Source: Cetorhinus maximus
Taxonomy: Eukaryota
DNA: 64,000 nt
Assembly (NCBI RefSeq): GCF_964194155.1
Contig: NC_135890.1
Coordinates: forward strand, 23,188,001 to 23,252,000
Reading direction: 5' to 3'
Part shown: one piece after another, positions 16,453-32,471 of the stretch
Numbering within the stretch: the first letter of the stretch is position 1
How the letters are laid out: each line of letters begins with the position of its first letter
The notes under the pieces: model-generated
What the model saw: the letters and a program-made list of their open reading frames with translations, nothing else
The model's database searches: none
Told to the model about the DNA's origin: nothing
Program-made: the position numbers and the translations under genes

Positions 16453-16948
16453 AGAATCACAGAATCACAGTGCAGAAGAGGCCCTTCGGCCCATCAAGTC
16501 TGCACCAACACGTGAGAAACACCTGACCTACCTACCTAATCCCATTTACCAGAACTTGGCCCATAGCCTTGAATGTTATGACGCGCCAAGTGCTCATCCA
16601 GGTACTTTTTAAAGGATGTGAGGCAACCCGCCTCCACCACCCTCCCAGGCAGCGCATTCCAGACTGTCACCACCCTCTGGGTAAAAAAGTTTTTCCTCAC
16701 ATCCCCCCTAACTCTCCTGCCCCTCACCTTGAACTGATGCCCCCTTGTGACTAACCCTTCAACTAAGGGGAACAGCTGCTCCCTATCCACCAGGTCCATG
16801 CCCCTCATAATCTTGTACACCTCGATCAGGTCGCCCCTCAGTCTTCTCTACTCCAACGAAAACAACCCAAGTCTATCCAACCTCTCTTCATAACTTAAAT
16901 GCTTCCTCCCAGGCAACATCCTGGTGAATCTCCTCTGCACCCCCTCCA
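16453..16948 (-). mobile_element. CR1 LINE 3' fragment
   Basis: LEGVQRRFTRMLPG...LGLFSLE and RKNFFTQRVVTVWNALP, ending in an (attct)-type tail. Confidence 0.9.
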
Positions 16949-17449
16949 GGGGTTGAATTTTCCCAGCCTTGAGGAGACGGGTTTGGATGCCCGGAAATAA
17001 TGGGGAGATCAGGACGGTTTCCCAAAGCATTTCTGACTCCAGGTAAGTTTCCTAGGTGGCAGCCTTGATGTGAGGACAGGAACGTCTTATTGAGGCTTCT
17101 AAGTGAGCTATTCACCCCATTTTGCAAGGGAATTGAAAGTTACTGAAGGTGTATGGGTCCCACAGAGCATCAGAACTCAGCAGCTCAAAGGAGGCAAGAG
17201 CACAGGAGGAGATCGTTGTTGCCTGAAATTGAGAGGCATTCAGTTGCGCAGAGTCTCCAAGCAGTGAGGCTCAGGGCTGCCATTGGAAGGGAGAGCTGTT
17301 TAAAGGGCTTGCTGTGTCGAAGGCCTGCTGCTAAGGCCAGTAAATAAGAGGTATTCCCACAAGAACCCTGCAACAAACTAAACCAATTCAATGGGGATAA
17401 GCCAGTGAGTGTCAAAGGCTGGAAAGGGAAATGAGTGCCCTGTATTCAG

Positions 17450-17727
17450 TGTAGTATAAGGCTCTGGCATATACAGGTTTGATGTGGGACTGAGTATAGT
17501 GCTGCCCACGCAGTGATGTAAGAAGGTGCATGACACAGACCCAGGGGTCAGTGTAGTATTGAGCAGAGACTGGTAAAGACTTAAGCATGAAGATACCTCC
17601 TGGCCTATACCCTTTACTGTACATGTGTAAATAGTTCTACTTGTTAATAAAGACTTACAGTTAACCTACTAAAGACCACAAAAACTTCTTTAAGCAACAC
17701 CGTTCTGTAACCAACATCCTCCCAACA
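17450..17727 (+). repeat. 5' LTR
   Basis: TG...CA ends; internal aataaa; shares the block gtaaatagttctacttgttaataaagacttacagttaacctact with the 3' LTR. Confidence 0.9.
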
Positions 17728-18619
17728 TGATGGCAACAGTAGGGGGTCAAAAACCCTCAACTTCGCAAAAATGTTGAAACAAACCAAAATGCTGGAAGGC
17801 TAAGAAAAACTTCAACAAAGCTTTCGGGCATAAAAGAAGCTTCCAAAAGAAGCAGAGGGCTCAGAGGAAAAATCGCCAGAGACTCCCCCAAGTAAAGGCC
17901 TGGAAGCTAAAGGCAGAGATTTTTACTGCAGCAGAAGACTCCATTGAATCTCTCTTGGAAGTCTAGTTTCAGAGCGCAGCGTCCACAGAGCCTGCAAGGA
18001 TGAGCTAAATCTTTTAATGCTCCAGGCTGCAGCTAATCCTGAGAACCTTTTCCCTAGCTCAGTGTTAGAGGCCCCGCTGAAGGTAAAGCCCGTCATTGAA
18101 ACCCAATTCCCCAATCTGAGCCCCACCACGTGACCTACATATTCACAAAATAAGAAAGAAGAATGAATTATTTAAATCTGTCAGGAACGTTGCGACTGTG
18201 CAGCTCAGGAAACAGCAAGCACAACTTCCGATTCAAACGCCTCGTTACTCGCCACGGCAAACCGCGGAACGAAAGAAGTCAGCGCACAGCCGATCCAGGC
18301 AGCCATTGGTCAGACCCTGCTTCAAGAAGTGCACCATTGCCATTTTGCGGAGCCAGCCAAAACCAGCAAGCGTGGGAAATTCCCTGGCCTTGAAATACAA
18401 GAAAAGCTCCAGAGAAAATTTTTAAAAATGGAAGGCAGAGCAAAAGAAAAGCCTCTAGTATAATTCTCCAAATTAAAAAAAAACCCTGGATGGCCGAAAC
18501 TTCTTGTTTTGAAGCTTTCATGCTGAGTTTAAAAGTTTGAAATAAAAAACAGCTACTGCACAGCTGTTCTTAAAAGGGCAACGACATTTAAAGCTGTAAC
18601 TACATAAAATCAAAAATCC

Positions 18620-18880
18620 AATTTACCAGGTCAGTTTGGATTTATCCAATGGGAAATAATGTGGCATCCTTGAGAAGTGACATTTCACATTACTGGAGTA
18701 CATCAGGTCTCAGTAAAAGATCAGAGGAAGCCCAGATTACGGCCTTTTTATATCGGAGGGGGGGGTTTGGTGATCTTGCAAATCATGTTATCCTAATGCA
18801 AGAGTTTGATAAATCCGCAACCAGCCTCAGGGAACTGTTAACAGCTTTGACGAATATTTTAATCTTCAAGCTAGGGAGAG
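18620..18880 (+). pseudogene. Gypsy gag N-terminal remnant
   Basis: HYWSTSGLSKRSEEAQITAFLY... then, after a frameshift, FDEYFNL. Resembles the Y..ASGL..KSEE.Q...LLY / F..YF pattern of Gypsy gag. Confidence 0.6.
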
Positions 18881-18981
18881 GCAAGAGGGCACTCGAGAGG
18901 TGGGGAGCCTTCCAGAAGTCCCAAAGGAATATCTATTTGAAGATCCCGACATGTTTCCAGAACTGCACCAGCAACTGGTAA

Positions 18982-19990
18982 TGGGACAAGGAAAGAGCCC
19001 TATGGCAGGCCAAGCAAGAAGAAACAGAAGTAAAATCAGAAAATGGTCGTATCAAAGCTGAACTGGAAGATTTGAAGCACAAAGTTCAAGCTGAGTATAT
19101 ACCTTTGAAAATGCATGATAACCTAAAGCCTTCAATGAACCAAACCGTTCAAGATCTGAACAGATAAATTTCAGAGACATCCCAAAGGTACCAGGAGAAA
19201 ATAATGAACCCCAATTCCACAGTTGGCGAATCTAAGCGGGAGTTGGGGAAACGCAACCAGCTGTACAGCCAGGCACAACAACAGGCAGATGAGGTACTCT
19301 TGTGGCCTTGAAAGACTCTGAAGAACCAATACATGCCTCTGGAAAAACACAGAGTTTAAAAAGCCATTGAATGCTACTTCAGGAAAAGCCATGTTGGGGC
19401 TATCAGCAGTGACAAAGCAATACGGAGTGACAAGCTGAACAAGGGATTAGACAGCTGAAAGAACAGCAAATTGTCCTTCAAGATCATATTCAAAAACAGT
19501 ACATAACCCTTCAGCAACATGACAGAATAAAGAGTACCTTGACCAGTAGAATGGCAGAACAGCAGAACAAACTCAATCAGATCCTGGTAAATTACAAGAA
19601 AACTCAAGATGAAGCAATTGAGCTTTGCAACGAAAAGGAAAACCTTCACACGCTACAAAGATCCCTCAGGTCAGTTTGTTCCTCTGAAACATTACGAAAT
19701 GAAACAAAATTAATTTAATGCTGCTCTGAAAGAACTGACAAACCAGTTTTCAGAGGAGGTTCAGGAGTGTTCAGTATTCCAGGAGGGAGCCAACAGATCC
19801 AAGAAAGAGACTGCAGCACTGAAGGAAACAGTTTGCACATGTGGAAGAAACGTTGGAAGAACATTACGTGTCCAAAGAGATATACGAAGAGACAAAAATC
19901 AAGAGCAAAGAACGGCAACTGAAGGTAGAAGTTCTCAATAAAGAGCATGAGGTGTTTCAAAAACAATTGGCAGAAGTGCAATTACAGAAA
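18982..19990 (+). pseudogene. uaca: Captured UACA-like coiled-coil fragment (degenerate)
   Basis: AEYIPLKMHDNLKPSMNQTVQDLNR*ISETSQRYQEK, LKNQYMPLEKH, QDHIQKQYITLQQHD, ILVNYKKTQDE and FNAALKELTNQFSE occur in the same order as the UACA coiled-coil repeats as recalled. Confidence 0.75.
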
Positions 19991-20029
19991 GTGAGCTTGA
20001 AGGATAGCACAGAAAATAGGTTCTGCCAA

Positions 20030-20800
20030 GGAAAACTGATCCACTCAAAAAATCAACTTCCATGTACAAATGATGAGTTTGTTAATAAAAAAAAAAGGAA
20101 CTGATGAGAACACTGGAGTCACTCACAGGAAGTAGAACACTTGAAAGAGGACTTGAAATGCTTAAATGATGAACTTGTACAAAAAAATTCAACAAAGCAT
20201 TTATTGCCCATCCCTAATTACCCTTGTTCAGAGGACATTTTTTAACAGTCAACCACATTGCTGGAGTCACATGCAGGCCAGACGAGTTAAGGACAGCAGG
20301 TGTCCTTCCCTAAAGGACATTAGTGAACCAGATGGGTTTTTATAACAATCGGCAATGGTCTCATAGTCATCATTAGACTTATAATTCCAAATTTTTATTG
20401 AATCTGCTGTGGCGGGATTTGAACCCAGGTGCCCAGAATATTACCCTAGGTCTCTGGTCTAGTGACAATACCACTATGCCACTGCCTCCACCACCACAGA
20501 ATCAATGACCAAAACCGATGAAATTGTTGAACTTTGTTCCAAACTGAACAACATGATGGACAAGATGCATAGTATGGAAGGGCAAATCCAGACTTCAAAA
20601 GCAGATAAGGAGAATTCTAAGAAATACGTTGAGGACTTAACAAATGAACTGAAAGAGTCTAAACAGCAGTCAGTGGCCAGGCAAAAAACATTCCGAACAG
20701 AACTGTATGCCCAGGTGAAGTTGTCAAACTTATATAAGAGTTCTGAAGAAAACTCTGAGATGAAGACGATTCAATTTACCAGATTAGTTGCTGAACCGAA
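20030..20800 (+). pseudogene. tpr: Captured nucleoprotein TPR N-terminal coiled-coil fragment, intronless, split by a SINE
   Basis: ELMRTLESLTQEVEHLKEDLKCLNDELVQKNSTK, then TKTDE...KYVEDLTNELKESKQQ...FRTELYAQVKLSNLYKS. Matches recalled TPR ([40 protein letters not shown]...FHNELNAHIKLSNLYKS). Confidence 0.82.
20198..20492 (-). mobile_element. tRNA-derived SINE inserted in the LTR element
   Basis: Minus-strand A-box tggcatagtgg and B-box ggttcaaatcc; tail attagggatgggcaataaatgc. Confidence 0.85.
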
Positions 20801-21371
20801 TGAAAAGACTCGTAAGCTCGAAAAACAACTAAAAAAGAAGAAAGTAATCAAAAATTTGGCTAAAATTATGAAACAGGTGCAAATGAATGTTCCATTATTG
20901 AAACGTAGACGTCCATCTACATCGAGACGGCCCACATGGCAAAAGAAGAGAAAGAAGCGCCAAGGAGACGAATACAATGTTTGTCCACCCCACATGAAAC
21001 AGTTTAGCGTAGCGGCAAACACCGATCAACGCAAAGGAATGGCAGACAAGGATGAAAGCATACCGAGATGCCAGCCCAAACTCCAAGCCAATGGGAAGAA
21101 CCAAAGCATACCACTCCCCCAACAGAACGGCGAACGAGATATGGAAGGGTTATAAGGCCTCCAGACCGCCTGAACCTGTAAGTTCCAGGACCTGAAGGGG
21201 GGAGACGGGGTTAATGAGAATGTCGTAATAGCGCTAATATAGTAATAGCAATAACGCAGTAATAGAAATAATGTGGCAACATTAATATAAATGTATGAAA
21301 CTGATAACAATGTAAGACATGAAGTAAATCAGTATAACTCCATATACATTGGATAAAGACTTGGGGGGAGG

Positions 21372-21629
21372 TGTAGTATAAATGTCTGGCACATACAGGG
21401 ATAATGTGGGACTGAGTAAAGTACCACTCACACAGTGATGTAAGAAGGCACATGACCCAGACACAGGGGTCAGTGTGGTGTTGAGCAGATGGTAAAAGAC
21501 CTAAGCATGGAAACAGCTTCTAGTCTGTTGATATGTAAATAGTTCTACTTGTTAATAAAGACTTACAGTTAACCTACTGAAGACTACGAAGACTTCTTTA
21601 AGAATTCTGTAACCAACACTCTCCAAACA
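21372..21629 (+). repeat. 3' LTR
   Basis: TG...CA ends, preceded by a polypurine tract. Confidence 0.9.
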
Positions 21630-29869: not shown

Positions 29870-32100
29870 TGCCCCAGCACCAATATCTACACCAGCCCCA
29901 GCACCGACACCTACACCAACAGCAGCACTGACACCTACACCAGAACCGGCACTGGCACCTACACCAGCACCGGCACTGACACCTACACCAGCACCGGCAC
30001 TGACACCTACACCAGCACCGGCACTGGCACCTACACCAGCACCGGCACTGGCACCTACACCAACACCGGCACTGGCACCTACACCAGCACCGGCATTGGC
30101 ACCTACACCAGCACCGGCATTGGCACCTACACCAGCACCGGCACCGACACCTACACCAGCATCAGCACTGGCACCTACACCAGCACCGGCACTGGCACCT
30201 ACACCAGCACCGGCACTGGCACCTACACCAGCACCGGCACCTACACCAGCACCGGCACTGGCACCTACACCAGCACCGGCACTGGCACCTACACCAGCAC
30301 CGGCACTGGCACCTACACCAGCACCGGCACTGGCACCTACACCAGCATCGGCACTGACACCTACACCAGCACCGGCACTGGCACCTACACCAGCACCGGC
30401 ACCGGCACCGGCACTGGCACCTACACCAGCACTGGCACTGGCACCTACACCAGCACCGGCACCTACACCAGCACTGGCACTGGCACCTACACCAGCATCG
30501 GCACTGGCACCTACACCAGCACTGGCACTGGCAGCTACACCAGCACCGGCACCTACACCAGCACCTACACCAGCACTGGCACTGGCACCTACACCAGCAC
30601 CAGCACTGACACCTACACCAGCACCGGCACCTACACCAGCACCGGCACCTACACCAGCACCGGCACTGGCACCTACACCAGCACCGGCACTGACACCTAC
30701 ACCAACAGCAGCACTGACACCTACACCAACAGCAGCACCGACATCTACACCAGCACTGGTATTGGCACCTACACCAGCACCGGCACTGACACCTACACCA
30801 GCAGCAGCACTGGCACCTACACCAGCACCGGCATTGGCACCTACACCAGCACCGGCACTGGCACCTACACCAGCACCGGCACTGGCACCTACACCAGCAC
30901 CGGCACTGGCACCTACACCAGCACTGGCACTGGCACCTACACCAGCACTGGCACTGGCACCTACACCAGCACTGGCACTGGCACCTACACCAGCACCGGC
31001 ACTGGCACCTACACCAGCACCGGCACTGGCACCTACACCAGCACCGGCACTGGCACCTACACCAGCACCATCACTGGCACCTACACCAGCACCGGTACTG
31101 GCACCTACACCAGCACTGGCACTGGCACCTACACCAGCACCAGCACTGCCACCTACACCAGCACTGCCACCTACACCAGCACCGACACCTACACCAGCAC
31201 CAGCACTGACACCTACACCAGCACTGGCACTAGCACCTACACCAGCACCAGCACTGCCACCTGCACCAGCTCCGGCACCGATACCTACACCAACAGCAGC
31301 ACCGACACCTACGCCAACAGCAGCACCGACATCTACACCAGCACCGGCACTGGCACCTACACCAGCACCGGCACTGGCACCTACACCTGCACCGGCACTA
31401 AAACCTACACTGGCACTGGCACCTACACCAGCACTGGCACCTACACCAGCACCGGCACTGGCACCTACACCAGCACCGGCACTGGCACCTACACCAGCAC
31501 CAGCACTGACACCTACACCAGCACTGGCACTGACACCTACACCAGCACCGGCACTGGCACCTACACCAGCACCAGCACTGACACCTACACCAGCACCAGC
31601 ACTGCCACCTACACCAGCACCGACACCTACACCAACAGCAGCACTGACACCTACACCAGCACCGGCATTGGCACCTACACCAGCACCGGCACTGACACCT
31701 ATACCAGCACTGGCACCTACACCAGCACCAGCACTGGCACCTACACCAGCACTGGCAACTACACCAGCACCAGCATTGACACCTACACCTGCACCAGTAC
31801 CAGCACTGACACTGATACCAACACTGACACCAGCACCAACATCGACTCCTACACCAGCACCAGCACCAATATTGATATCTATAGCTGCAATGGCACTGAT
31901 ACCTACACCAGCACCAGCACTGACACCTACACCAGCAACGGCACTGATACCTACACCAGCACCAGCACTGACACCTACACCAGCACCAGCACTGACACCT
32001 ACACCAACACAGGCATAACACCTACAACAGCCCCAGCACTGACACCTACACCAGCACTGGCACTGACAACGACGCCAGCATCAGCACCTACACCAGCACC
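29870..32100. repeat. 24/18-bp minisatellite (accagcaccggcactggcacctac)n in EndoU intron
   Basis: About 90 units. Unit lengths are multiples of 3, giving stop-free frames. Confidence 0.95.
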
Positions 32101-32471
32101 AGCCTGCTTCCCCCATTCAATACGATCATGATTCATCTTCTGCCTCAATTTCATCTTCCACATTATCCCCATATCCCTTAATCCCCTTAACATCCAAAAA
32201 AATCTATGTAGGCCCTACACCTGCAATGACACAGCAGGTCAAACGGTCTCTTCTGAGCTGAAACATTGCGATTCCAAGTCAACTTGCATTATTGAGAGCT
32301 TGGACTCTAGAGAATACTGAAGGATCAGACCAGAAATATCTTGTGTACATTGACAATCTCTTTCTTGCGCCTTTTCCAATCTTCTTGGAACAGGAACAAA
32401 ATCTGCTGTTTGGCATAAAATGATATTAGCGGACAATTCCTAAATAAACTTGGGGTTTGACTCTAACCTAC

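Follow-up and report, generated by a model that had tools for sequence, protein, structure and literature searches.

The window analysed here is a 64,000-nucleotide stretch of the Cetorhinus maximus genome (contig NC_135890.1, positions 23,188,001 to 23,252,000), and its positions 17450-21629 hold a non-autonomous derived Ty3/Gypsy element rather than an autonomous LTR retrotransposon. Except for one late SINE insertion, all of the features described below lie on the forward strand. The element is bounded by two LTRs with TG..CA ends, one at 17450-17727 that contains an AATAAA motif (5' LTR) and one at 21372-21629 (3' LTR), which are identical at 220 of 257 aligned bases (K2P distance of 0.16). 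The 5' LTR is followed by a decayed PBS (17728-17737) matching 8 of the 10 bases of the family's TGGTGGCAGC, a sequence that is complementary to the 3' ends of host tRNA-Leu and that is matched over 10 bases in sister copies. A PPT was read from the sequence at 21363-21371. The TSD of the family is 5 bp long: at least four of the five bases match in 7 of the 10 copies with a defined end (8 further copies had no defined end), and only three match in the window copy. The PBS is followed by a long 5' leader (17738-18610), which is common to gag-protease and full gag-pol relatives. Domain searches of the element's ORFs detected no protease, RT, RNase H or integrase core, and a search against Rfam returned no match. 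The paired LTRs, the PBS and PPT and the missing enzymatic domains had all been proposed in a sequence-only reading of this DNA, and each was confirmed. We presume that the lineage belongs to the Mag-like/K02A2.6-like Gypsy clade, a label that is putative.

The interior opens with a gag capsid N-terminal domain (18611-18880, the start being approximate), which was identified from fold and sequence matches. What had been described as a gag-like N-terminus is therefore a genuine capsid domain. The top six VIA structure matches of this piece were all capsids (Arc, Copia and Ty3 NTD), with Z scores of 6.2-6.9, rmsd values of 2.7-4.0 and 67-77 aligned residues. In Atlas, the capsid piece of an older subtype scored 0.93-0.94 with gag families, and the window-type piece yielded no usable match as a query. 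The capsid piece also matches at 51% a full gag that bears a zinc knuckle and a protease. Foldseek found no match with the capsid piece, Pfam did not name it and PDB sequence searches returned nothing useful. The gag alignment was built from 18 natural fragments; the fragment of locus L019, which carries a stop, was left out. The capsid C-terminal domain, the zinc knuckle and the protease are all absent after this domain, which is followed by a linker (18881-19038) found in frame in the natural ORFs of four loci (L077, L082, L089 and L090).

Three pieces of host coiled-coil genes come next. The UACA piece (19039-19903) covers amino acids 716-768 and 798-1051 and presents an in-frame deletion shared across the family. 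It was matched by tblastn with an E-value of 4e-40 and at 75-81% to the host gene at the DNA level, and the natural ORF of a sister copy matched shark UACA at 54% (E = 2e-89). A ninein remnant (19921-20019) retains about 32 codons in the window and about 90 in older subfamilies. The match between UACA and TPR that defines it (19921-20011, 77%, E = 8e-14) was found with full HMMER, a word-based search of the middle segment having yielded nothing, and it raises to three the two captured genes counted in the sequence-only reading. The TPR piece is found in two parts. The first (20020-20197) represents amino acids 98-160, from part of exon 3 and from exons 4 and 5 with the introns absent, and the second (20511-20915) represents amino acids 218-308, 337-355 and a diverged remnant of 416-441, from spliced exons 6-10 and 12 with two shared deletions. 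The tblastn E-values are 3e-22 and 2e-11, and the DNA matches the host gene exon by exon without introns. The resemblances to UACA and TPR noted earlier are thus specific, and the TPR piece is of mRNA origin. The two TPR parts are separated by a later tRNA-type SINE insertion on the reverse strand (20198-20496), whose A/B-box-like head was read from the sequence. This insertion is private to the window copy, since it is absent from the 20 other copies compared, and about 110 bases of TPR disappeared with it.

Downstream of TPR, a basic patch and an element-derived stretch (20916-21055) are common to gag-protease sibling elements. The basic patch had been listed as a separate feature; it is present, but its start is the diverged TPR exon-12 remnant. 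The interior closes with an integrase C-terminal tail (21056-21181) that was delimited by comparison with full-length relatives and ends at the native pol stop. Its last portion (21131-21181), which reads RTRYGRVIRPPDRLNL up to the stop, matches the pol end of full-length relatives, as the proposal of a Gypsy pol tail had implied.

The element shows two hallmarks of an LTR-mediated retrocopy, namely intron-less partial mRNA in place of its internal ORFs and microsimilarity at switch points. Intron loss is seen for TPR and cannot be judged for UACA and ninein, because each of these two pieces sits inside one large exon. Four junctions display microsimilarity (raw counts of 13, 6, 5 and 6 of 7 bases) and one further junction has unassigned bases instead. 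None of the three host proteins matched, in any part, the spacer that precedes UACA or the one that separates it from ninein. It is hardly credible that this structure is a local accident, in which processed pseudogenes or genomic fragments ended up in one LTR element or generic coiled coils merely look like host genes. Pfam searches of the window's own ORFs, which returned only weak generic coiled-coil matches, are in line with such a scenario, but the matches at the DNA level to three individual host genes, the precise loss of introns, the absence of any visible poly(A) at the junctions and the presence of identical junctions in dozens of loci all argue against it. A survey of 82 loci refutes it: the matches are not merely generic and the insertion is not a single local one, the two outcomes that had been named as fatal to the sequence-only reading.

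All three host pieces were found in 44 of the 82 fetched loci, which establishes the propagated non-autonomous family that had been suspected; UACA was present in 56 loci, TPR only in 25 and no host piece in one. The genome probably contains several hundred copies. The LTR screen gave 3574 first-look candidates, 40 of which were scored. The window insertion is also present in two other species, catshark predicted proteins bear the same chimera, and in a third branch TPR is fused to another helical stretch. RT was present in 3 of 20 gag-CTD relatives. One full-length relative (L154) encodes RVT_1, RT_RNaseH, Integrase_H2C2 and rve followed by the shared tail, and its LTR and PBS are as in the window family; in L154 and L159, no env-like ORF or Pfam match was found between integrase and LTR. 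It is likely that full-length relatives with the same LTR copied the chimeric family in trans. The pol of L132 was also considered as a helper and was ruled out, as it belongs to a separate nested element.

The TPR piece was also found in a second, unrelated Gypsy family (family B, as opposed to family A of the window), where it is fused to that family's own protease. The gag and LTR of family B are unrelated to those of family A. Integrase lies upstream of RT in 4 of 20 gag relatives of family B (L170, L175, L178 and L185), the order by which the Gmr1 clade is defined in the available portion of PMC8220671, and the gag of family B presents a SCAN match. Family B is thus putatively of Gmr1 type, a label derived from the integrase/RT order and the SCAN match. 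The two internal TPR deletions are identical in both families, and eight residues of the TPR pieces are common to A and B and unlike both host sharks. In the TPR tree, the 31 family-A copies form one clade (support of 1.0) nested inside the family-B radiation. These identical deletions and the nesting of A inside B suggest that the TPR cassette likely moved between Gypsy lineages.

Along the host-derived part, the reading frame is kept at every one of 28 steps, and the same holds for 10 of 10 resolvable family-wide junctions; no family-wide stop was found, in agreement with the earlier proposal of a once-continuous frame. For five junctions outside this resolvable set, those joining gag to UACA, TPR to the tail (two) and protease to TPR and that of one A0 deletion, the frame rests on single-copy natural ORFs; one control with no junction likewise fell outside the set. 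Individual copies are heavily damaged, with a mean of 5.5 stops and 9 frameshifts (about 14 breaks), and the least-broken of 33 copies has 3 breaks. By hand scaling, roughly 5-15 breaks are expected on the element-only stem. Stops alone have little power, as about 0.6 are expected per segment. Micro-matches between these coding sequences fall in frame by chance in 46-83% of cases, a share that reaches 100% for 10-nt matches inside one gene. An in-frame junction consequently counts for less than odds of 1 in 3 would imply; at 0.6 per junction, the combined probability is about 0.006.

This null of 0.5-0.8 is one reason to consider that the cargo is neutral filler, i.e., that template switches between A-rich coiled-coil mRNAs often keep the frame by chance and that few master copies seed each burst, with no selection on the frame. 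Omega values of about 1 point the same way, as does the fact that host cargo is not required for spread, since the top 20 LTR matches include 10 solo LTRs and 4 gag-protease siblings without cargo. We nevertheless regard neutral filler as unlikely: the element-only branches are similar in length to the terminal ones, which accumulated 14 breaks per copy, and still none of the 28 steps shows a family-wide frameshift or stop. Moreover, the 182 private UACA indels include only 33 with a length divisible by three. Selection likely maintained the open frame during the spread of the family.

Selection appears to have acted little on the encoded amino acids. Omega of the host-derived part ranges from 0.4 to 1.3, which is near neutral (1.27 for UACA, 0.63 and 0.80 for TPR, and 0.40 [0.25-0.68] for ninein plus TPR). 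A within-family NG86 omega of about 0.6 was dropped as a sign of selection, since it rose to about 1 once transitions had been corrected for. Shared amino acid changes are more conservative (P about 0.02) and include fewer Pro/Gly. Overall, amino acid constraint on element-only branches seems weak, and selection most likely targeted translatability, not a specific protein. The gag/coiled-coil fusion claimed earlier is upheld as a once-continuous frame, a role of the fusion protein itself being hypothetical; the earlier reading missed the route of TPR through a second, unrelated Gypsy family.

A capsid domain joined to a coiled coil is the layout of Fv1- and TRIM-type restriction factors, which raises the idea that copies persisted or arose to serve the host as capsid-binding restriction factors. 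We find this very improbable, as every sampled copy is broken, within-family omega is about 1 and the copies, with their LTRs and TSDs, are scattered.

A real but lesser possibility is that the origin was the same and that the capsid/coiled-coil fusion protein was itself useful to the element, with the coiled coil standing in, as an oligomerizing stalk, for the lost capsid C-terminal domain, the nascent protein dragging its RNA to helper particles, centrosome or nuclear pore, and only helix character and length being kept. Each of the three cargoes identified is a long coiled coil from a scaffold protein, the join comes directly after the capsid N-terminal domain, and the third branch again joins TPR to a helical stretch. 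The omega of ninein plus TPR and the conservative shared changes also fit, with Pro/Gly at 0.9% versus 12% in TPR, although these counts come from about 15 codons. According to the available part of PMC7921559, human NIN mRNA reaches centrosomes via its nascent protein. In contrast, the omega of UACA exceeds 1, the cargo was deleted repeatedly and the capsid piece has an omega of 0.83 (0.46-2.06) between two chimeric subfamilies. Lower capsid values between older and younger subfamilies (0.13-0.22) were set aside: they come with a synonymous distance ten times that of the cargo and are thus probably the mark of a 5' swap from a full-gag donor.

The reading that we favor, with about an even chance of being correct, is a non-autonomous Ty3/Gypsy family whose entire pol and most of whose gag gave way to pieces of UACA, ninein and TPR in one frame, through serial template-switch capture and copying in trans, with the frame kept for an RNA-level reason. 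A Gmr1-type gag-protease element would have captured TPR mRNA, two in-frame deletions then shortening the captured piece. This cassette would have passed to a second Gypsy lineage, which acquired pieces of ninein and UACA, exchanged its 5' end one or more times and became shorter via further in-frame deletions. The captures were likely serial and mediated by template switching of reverse transcriptase. Ribosomes translating from gag to the native pol stop close to the 3' LTR might shield the unspliced RNA from nonsense-mediated decay, and translated RNA may stay where helper particles assemble. Long coiled-coil exons, which are A-rich, repetitive and rich in in-frame micro-matches, would make good open-frame filler, leaving the protein sequence free to drift. 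A broader and rather doubtful proposition is that sharks had long-lived parasite-of-parasite LTR elements that serially captured coiled coils of host scaffold proteins in frame (TPR, ninein, UACA and perhaps a fourth), handed them on between unrelated Gypsy clades and used a capsid/coiled-coil fusion protein to steer their own RNA in cis to helper particles, centrosome or nuclear pore.

Transducing retroviruses carry gag-onc fusions, have lost pol and need a helper. The shark family resembles them in its Gag-host fusion, pol loss and need for a helper, but no env (in L154 and L159) or infectious stage was seen, nor any sign that the function of the host pieces was kept. The available text of PMC4299795 mentions v-kit and RSV, and it describes crocodilian ERVs with 9 copies of a captured KIT-ligand and 6 of a captured nectin3. 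These are likewise ancient vertebrate LTR lineages spreading host mRNA across species; however, they are of retroviral class and carry one whole gene each, beside or instead of env, reportedly under purifying selection, whereas the shark Gypsy family carries Gag-fused fragments of three genes with near-neutral amino acids. LTR-mediated mRNA capture is therefore already known, from these ERVs and from maize Bs1. The latter, as covered in the accessible part of Tan et al. 2016 (PMC5131818), comprises exonic pieces of three host genes with switch points common to all copies, but it is a plant element of 1-5 copies and no cargo transfer between LTR lineages is mentioned there. The same source describes LTR-mediated retrocopies in animals, including a mouse retrocopy of four genes, in which partial mRNAs replace internal ORFs with microsimilarity at switch points, several parent genes can contribute to one chimera and secondary retroposition is possible. 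Those retrocopies are young, single- or few-copy loci, whereas the shark chimera is a family of hundreds that predates a split between shark orders and runs in one frame from capsid to the pol stop. Bdelloid LTR retrotransposons also swap accessory coding modules between unrelated retroelements (PMC5408684, in part), but as a separate ORF3 in autonomous elements; the shark module replaces pol and is Gag-fused. In cattle D-type ERVK (PMC10924933), trans-complemented defective elements similarly outnumber and ride on competent ones, and the portion available does not mention captured host genes. One further paper retrieved (PMC13343379) concerns, in the part available, CR1 LINEs and is not relevant here. 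Our literature search found no report of this family and no serial in-frame capture of host genes at comparable scale; it did not extend to supplements, Repbase or Dfam, where the family may already be catalogued.

The family preserves a dated, stepwise account of how LTR elements shuffled exons in a vertebrate: three genes were involved, family-wide rearrangements number at least ten, and a cassette likely passed between Gypsy clades. So large a sample is rare, and it allows one to ask whether selection keeps defective LTR elements translatable and why a single class of protein was captured on three occasions. The insertions are usable as phylogenetic markers. Finally, the hundreds of fragments resembling UACA, TPR and ninein can lead the annotation of shark genes astray, and catshark predicted proteins already include such fragments.

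The element at 17450-21629 of the window is bounded by a 5' LTR (17450-17727) and a 3' LTR (21372-21629), each beginning with TG and ending with CA and together identical at 220 of 257 aligned bases (K2P 0.16). In sister copies, the PBS TGGTGGCAGC lies immediately 3' of the 5' LTR and is complementary to the ends of host tRNA-Leu; the window's copy retains 8 of these 10 bases, and a PPT sits just ahead of its 3' LTR. This agrees with the sequence-only reading, as does the absence of any protease, RT, RNase H or integrase core from the window's element. The target-site duplication is 5 bp: at least four of the five bases agree in 7 of the 10 copies with defined ends (leaving out 8 further copies without a defined end), and three of five agree in the window. 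A SINE insertion (20198-20496), absent from all 20 other copies compared, is younger than the element. What we take to be the end of a CR1-like LINE lies just upstream (16848-17051, minus strand). Further along, a 24-bp tandem array (29887-32103) that reads as Pro/Ala/Thr repeats produced many spurious low-score TPR matches; other tandem arrays are numerous in the window (81 rows).

Two host genes, UACA and TPR, had been proposed as donors. Both matches proved specific, and a third donor, ninein, must be added. In one sister copy, a natural ORF of 321 residues matches shark UACA (54%, E 2e-89; all eight matches are UACA), another such ORF matches whale shark TPR (55%, E 2e-16), and the middle segment, which is longer in older subfamilies, matches stingray ninein (E 8e-11). 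All three genes were located in the 4.0-Gb host assembly. At the DNA level, 19039-19903 is 75-81% identical to host UACA and 19921-20011 is 77% identical to host ninein (E 8e-14), and the window matches host TPR exon after exon, spliced free of introns. The UACA and ninein pieces each fall within one large host exon, and an mRNA source is therefore proven for TPR only. Over the captured region, host UACA is identical to Carcharodon UACA at 325 of 345 residues, with lower values for six other elasmobranch proteins, which makes a lamniform shark the likely host. The spacers that precede UACA and separate it from ninein (window 18881-19038 and, in two other copies, L069:5090-5185 and L067:3349-3684) did not match the three host proteins. 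Short common words are found at the junctions. RT template switching onto co-packaged mRNA, as described in PMC5131818, yields exactly such anatomy, and the host pieces were probably captured serially.

The gag-like N-terminus noticed from the sequence is a genuine capsid domain. Pfam gives it no name, and Foldseek returned no match with a structure model built from 18 natural fragments (pLDDT 76); the six best structural matches of that model are all capsid domains (Z 6.2-6.9), and Atlas assigns the piece to retrotransposon gag families (0.91-0.94). Sibling elements with the same LTR share this capsid N-terminal domain (51% identity) and run on into a capsid C-terminal domain, zinc knuckle and protease; the chimera's gag ends directly after the shared domain. 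Siblings that share the LTR and tail of the window's element and retain gag, zinc knuckle and protease, without RT or host cargo, are abundant (L127, L133, L144, L146, L148-L166), and several have a Pro/Thr/Ser-rich stretch in common.

The chimera is a propagated family and not an accident, as the sequence-only reading had supposed. All three host pieces are present in 44 of 82 mapped loci and UACA in 56; 25 have TPR alone and one has none. Three genome searches gave 4294, 6058 and 1157 first-look candidates, figures that do not represent copy numbers. Of 40 listed tail matches, 19 were counted by hand as lying close to one of ~143 loci from one of these searches; as a hand estimate, this gives some 300 copies in the older subfamily by itself. 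UACA 694-1210 and 90 ninein codons are present in older copies, compared with UACA 716-1051 and 32 ninein codons in the window's subfamily. The best 20 LTR matches comprise 10 solo LTRs, three elements with UACA, four with a fuller gag and no cargo, one with a capsid piece linked to a different stretch and two with the tail only. Host cargo was found in none of 20 relatives with the capsid C-terminal domain, and RT in three. One relative, L154, combines RT, RNase H and integrase with the LTR, PBS, leader and tail of the window's family. The chimera's tail (21056-21181) is thus the end of pol, as had been read, and relatives of this type are candidate helpers by which the non-autonomous chimera could have been mobilised in trans. 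[quoted passage not shown]

Host-gene capture by LTR elements is already known, LTR-mediated retrocopies being described from fly, fish and mouse (PMC5131818). Maize Bs1 likewise combines three host genes but is described at 1-5 copies (PMC5131818), crocodilian ERVs with captured host genes are given at 6-9 copies (PMC4299795), and in rotifer elements the reported exchange between retroelements concerns ORF3 (PMC5408684). Among the papers that literature searches listed, none reports this shark family.

LTR-pair divergence has a median K2P of 0.18 (18 copies, 0.14-0.26). Contigs of two other organisms span the window's flank-LTR boundary (33 differences in 695 bases and 36 in 653), indicating that this insertion is older than those splits. 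UACA-spacer-ninein or ninein-TPR joins occur in four catshark predicted proteins; given vertical inheritance, the chimera would be older than the divergence of two shark orders.

The proposal that the element once held one continuous frame is supported. When anchors are measured within each copy, the spacing most often seen from one to the next is a multiple of three in all 28 steps from UACA 718 to TPR 420, and frame is kept at all 10 resolvable family-wide junctions (a count that excludes one control and the five longer tests). Natural ORFs span the gag-UACA join in four copies (L077, L082, L089, L090), and in L080 one continues from TPR as far as the native stop. None of the stops is common to the whole family among the compared copies, and those that recur most often lie at CGA codons undergoing decay. 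The mean load of a single copy is 5.5 stops and 9 frameshifts per 470 codons; the window's copy, rightly described as old and broken, has 2 stops and 10 frameshifts. Scaling the single-copy rate by hand, roughly 5-15 breaks would be expected on the element-only stem, against none seen. Two points weaken this evidence: chance alone puts 46-83% of micro-matches between these sequences in frame, and indels may be rarer in replicating lineages. Selection probably acted to keep the frame open; that the cargo was neutral filler seems unlikely.

The protein sequence itself is conserved weakly at most. Under a codon model, within-family omega is ~1 (0.92-1.15 in large groups), the value expected once copies have inserted. 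Along element-only branches, UACA gives 1.27 (0.71-2.94) and TPR 0.63 (0.41-1.12) and 0.80; the estimate for ninein plus TPR is 0.40 (0.25-0.68), a figure that owes something to an unusual omega of 2.0 within groups. Omega for the capsid piece is 0.83 (0.46-2.06) between two chimeric subfamilies. Its value of 0.13-0.22 between old and young subfamilies is accompanied by a dS of 0.67-0.85, against 0.06-0.08 in UACA, which points to a 5' swap and not to constraint within the chimera. Shared changes tend slightly towards the conservative (P about 0.02), and Pro/Gly occurs less often among them (small counts). A working capsid/coiled-coil fusion protein would explain why all identified cargoes are scaffold coiled coils, and human NIN mRNA is described as travelling by its nascent protein (PMC7921559); we nevertheless regard such a function as rather doubtful. 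The open frame runs as far as the native pol stop, which lies 190 bases ahead of the 3' LTR, and its residues drift, a combination that fits selection on RNA better than on protein, a reading in which we place about even confidence. An open frame would let the RNA escape nonsense-mediated decay.

A second family, with a longer, different LTR and a gag unrelated to that of the window's lineage, has its protease fused to TPR starting near TPR's beginning. Its autonomous relatives place integrase ahead of RT in 4 of 20 loci, the order described for Gmr1 (PMC8220671). TPR 309-336 and 357-415 are absent from both families, and eight TPR residues common to both differ from both host sharks. In a TPR tree of 50 copies with a single host outgroup, the window's lineage (31 copies) is monophyletic with support 1.0 and lies inside the second family's radiation. 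One of the two shared deletions lies on a 13-base repeat and could have recurred independently. The simplest reading is one TPR capture followed by transfer between families, in which the cassette would have passed between Gypsy clades. Two loci ~13 kb apart on opposite strands (L040 and L050, G000:C16) have TPR far more alike than any other pair, through local duplication or gene conversion. In a third large branch, a Gmr1-type gag-protease reads in frame into TPR (aa 1-34 and 104-238) and then into a helical stretch that is possibly a fourth capture (L167, L186, L187-L194; e.g. G000:C6:949000-955500). This branch has at least 150 scored loci among 1631 candidates; TPR is present in all eight loci fetched, and natural ORFs cross from protease to TPR in six of the eight.
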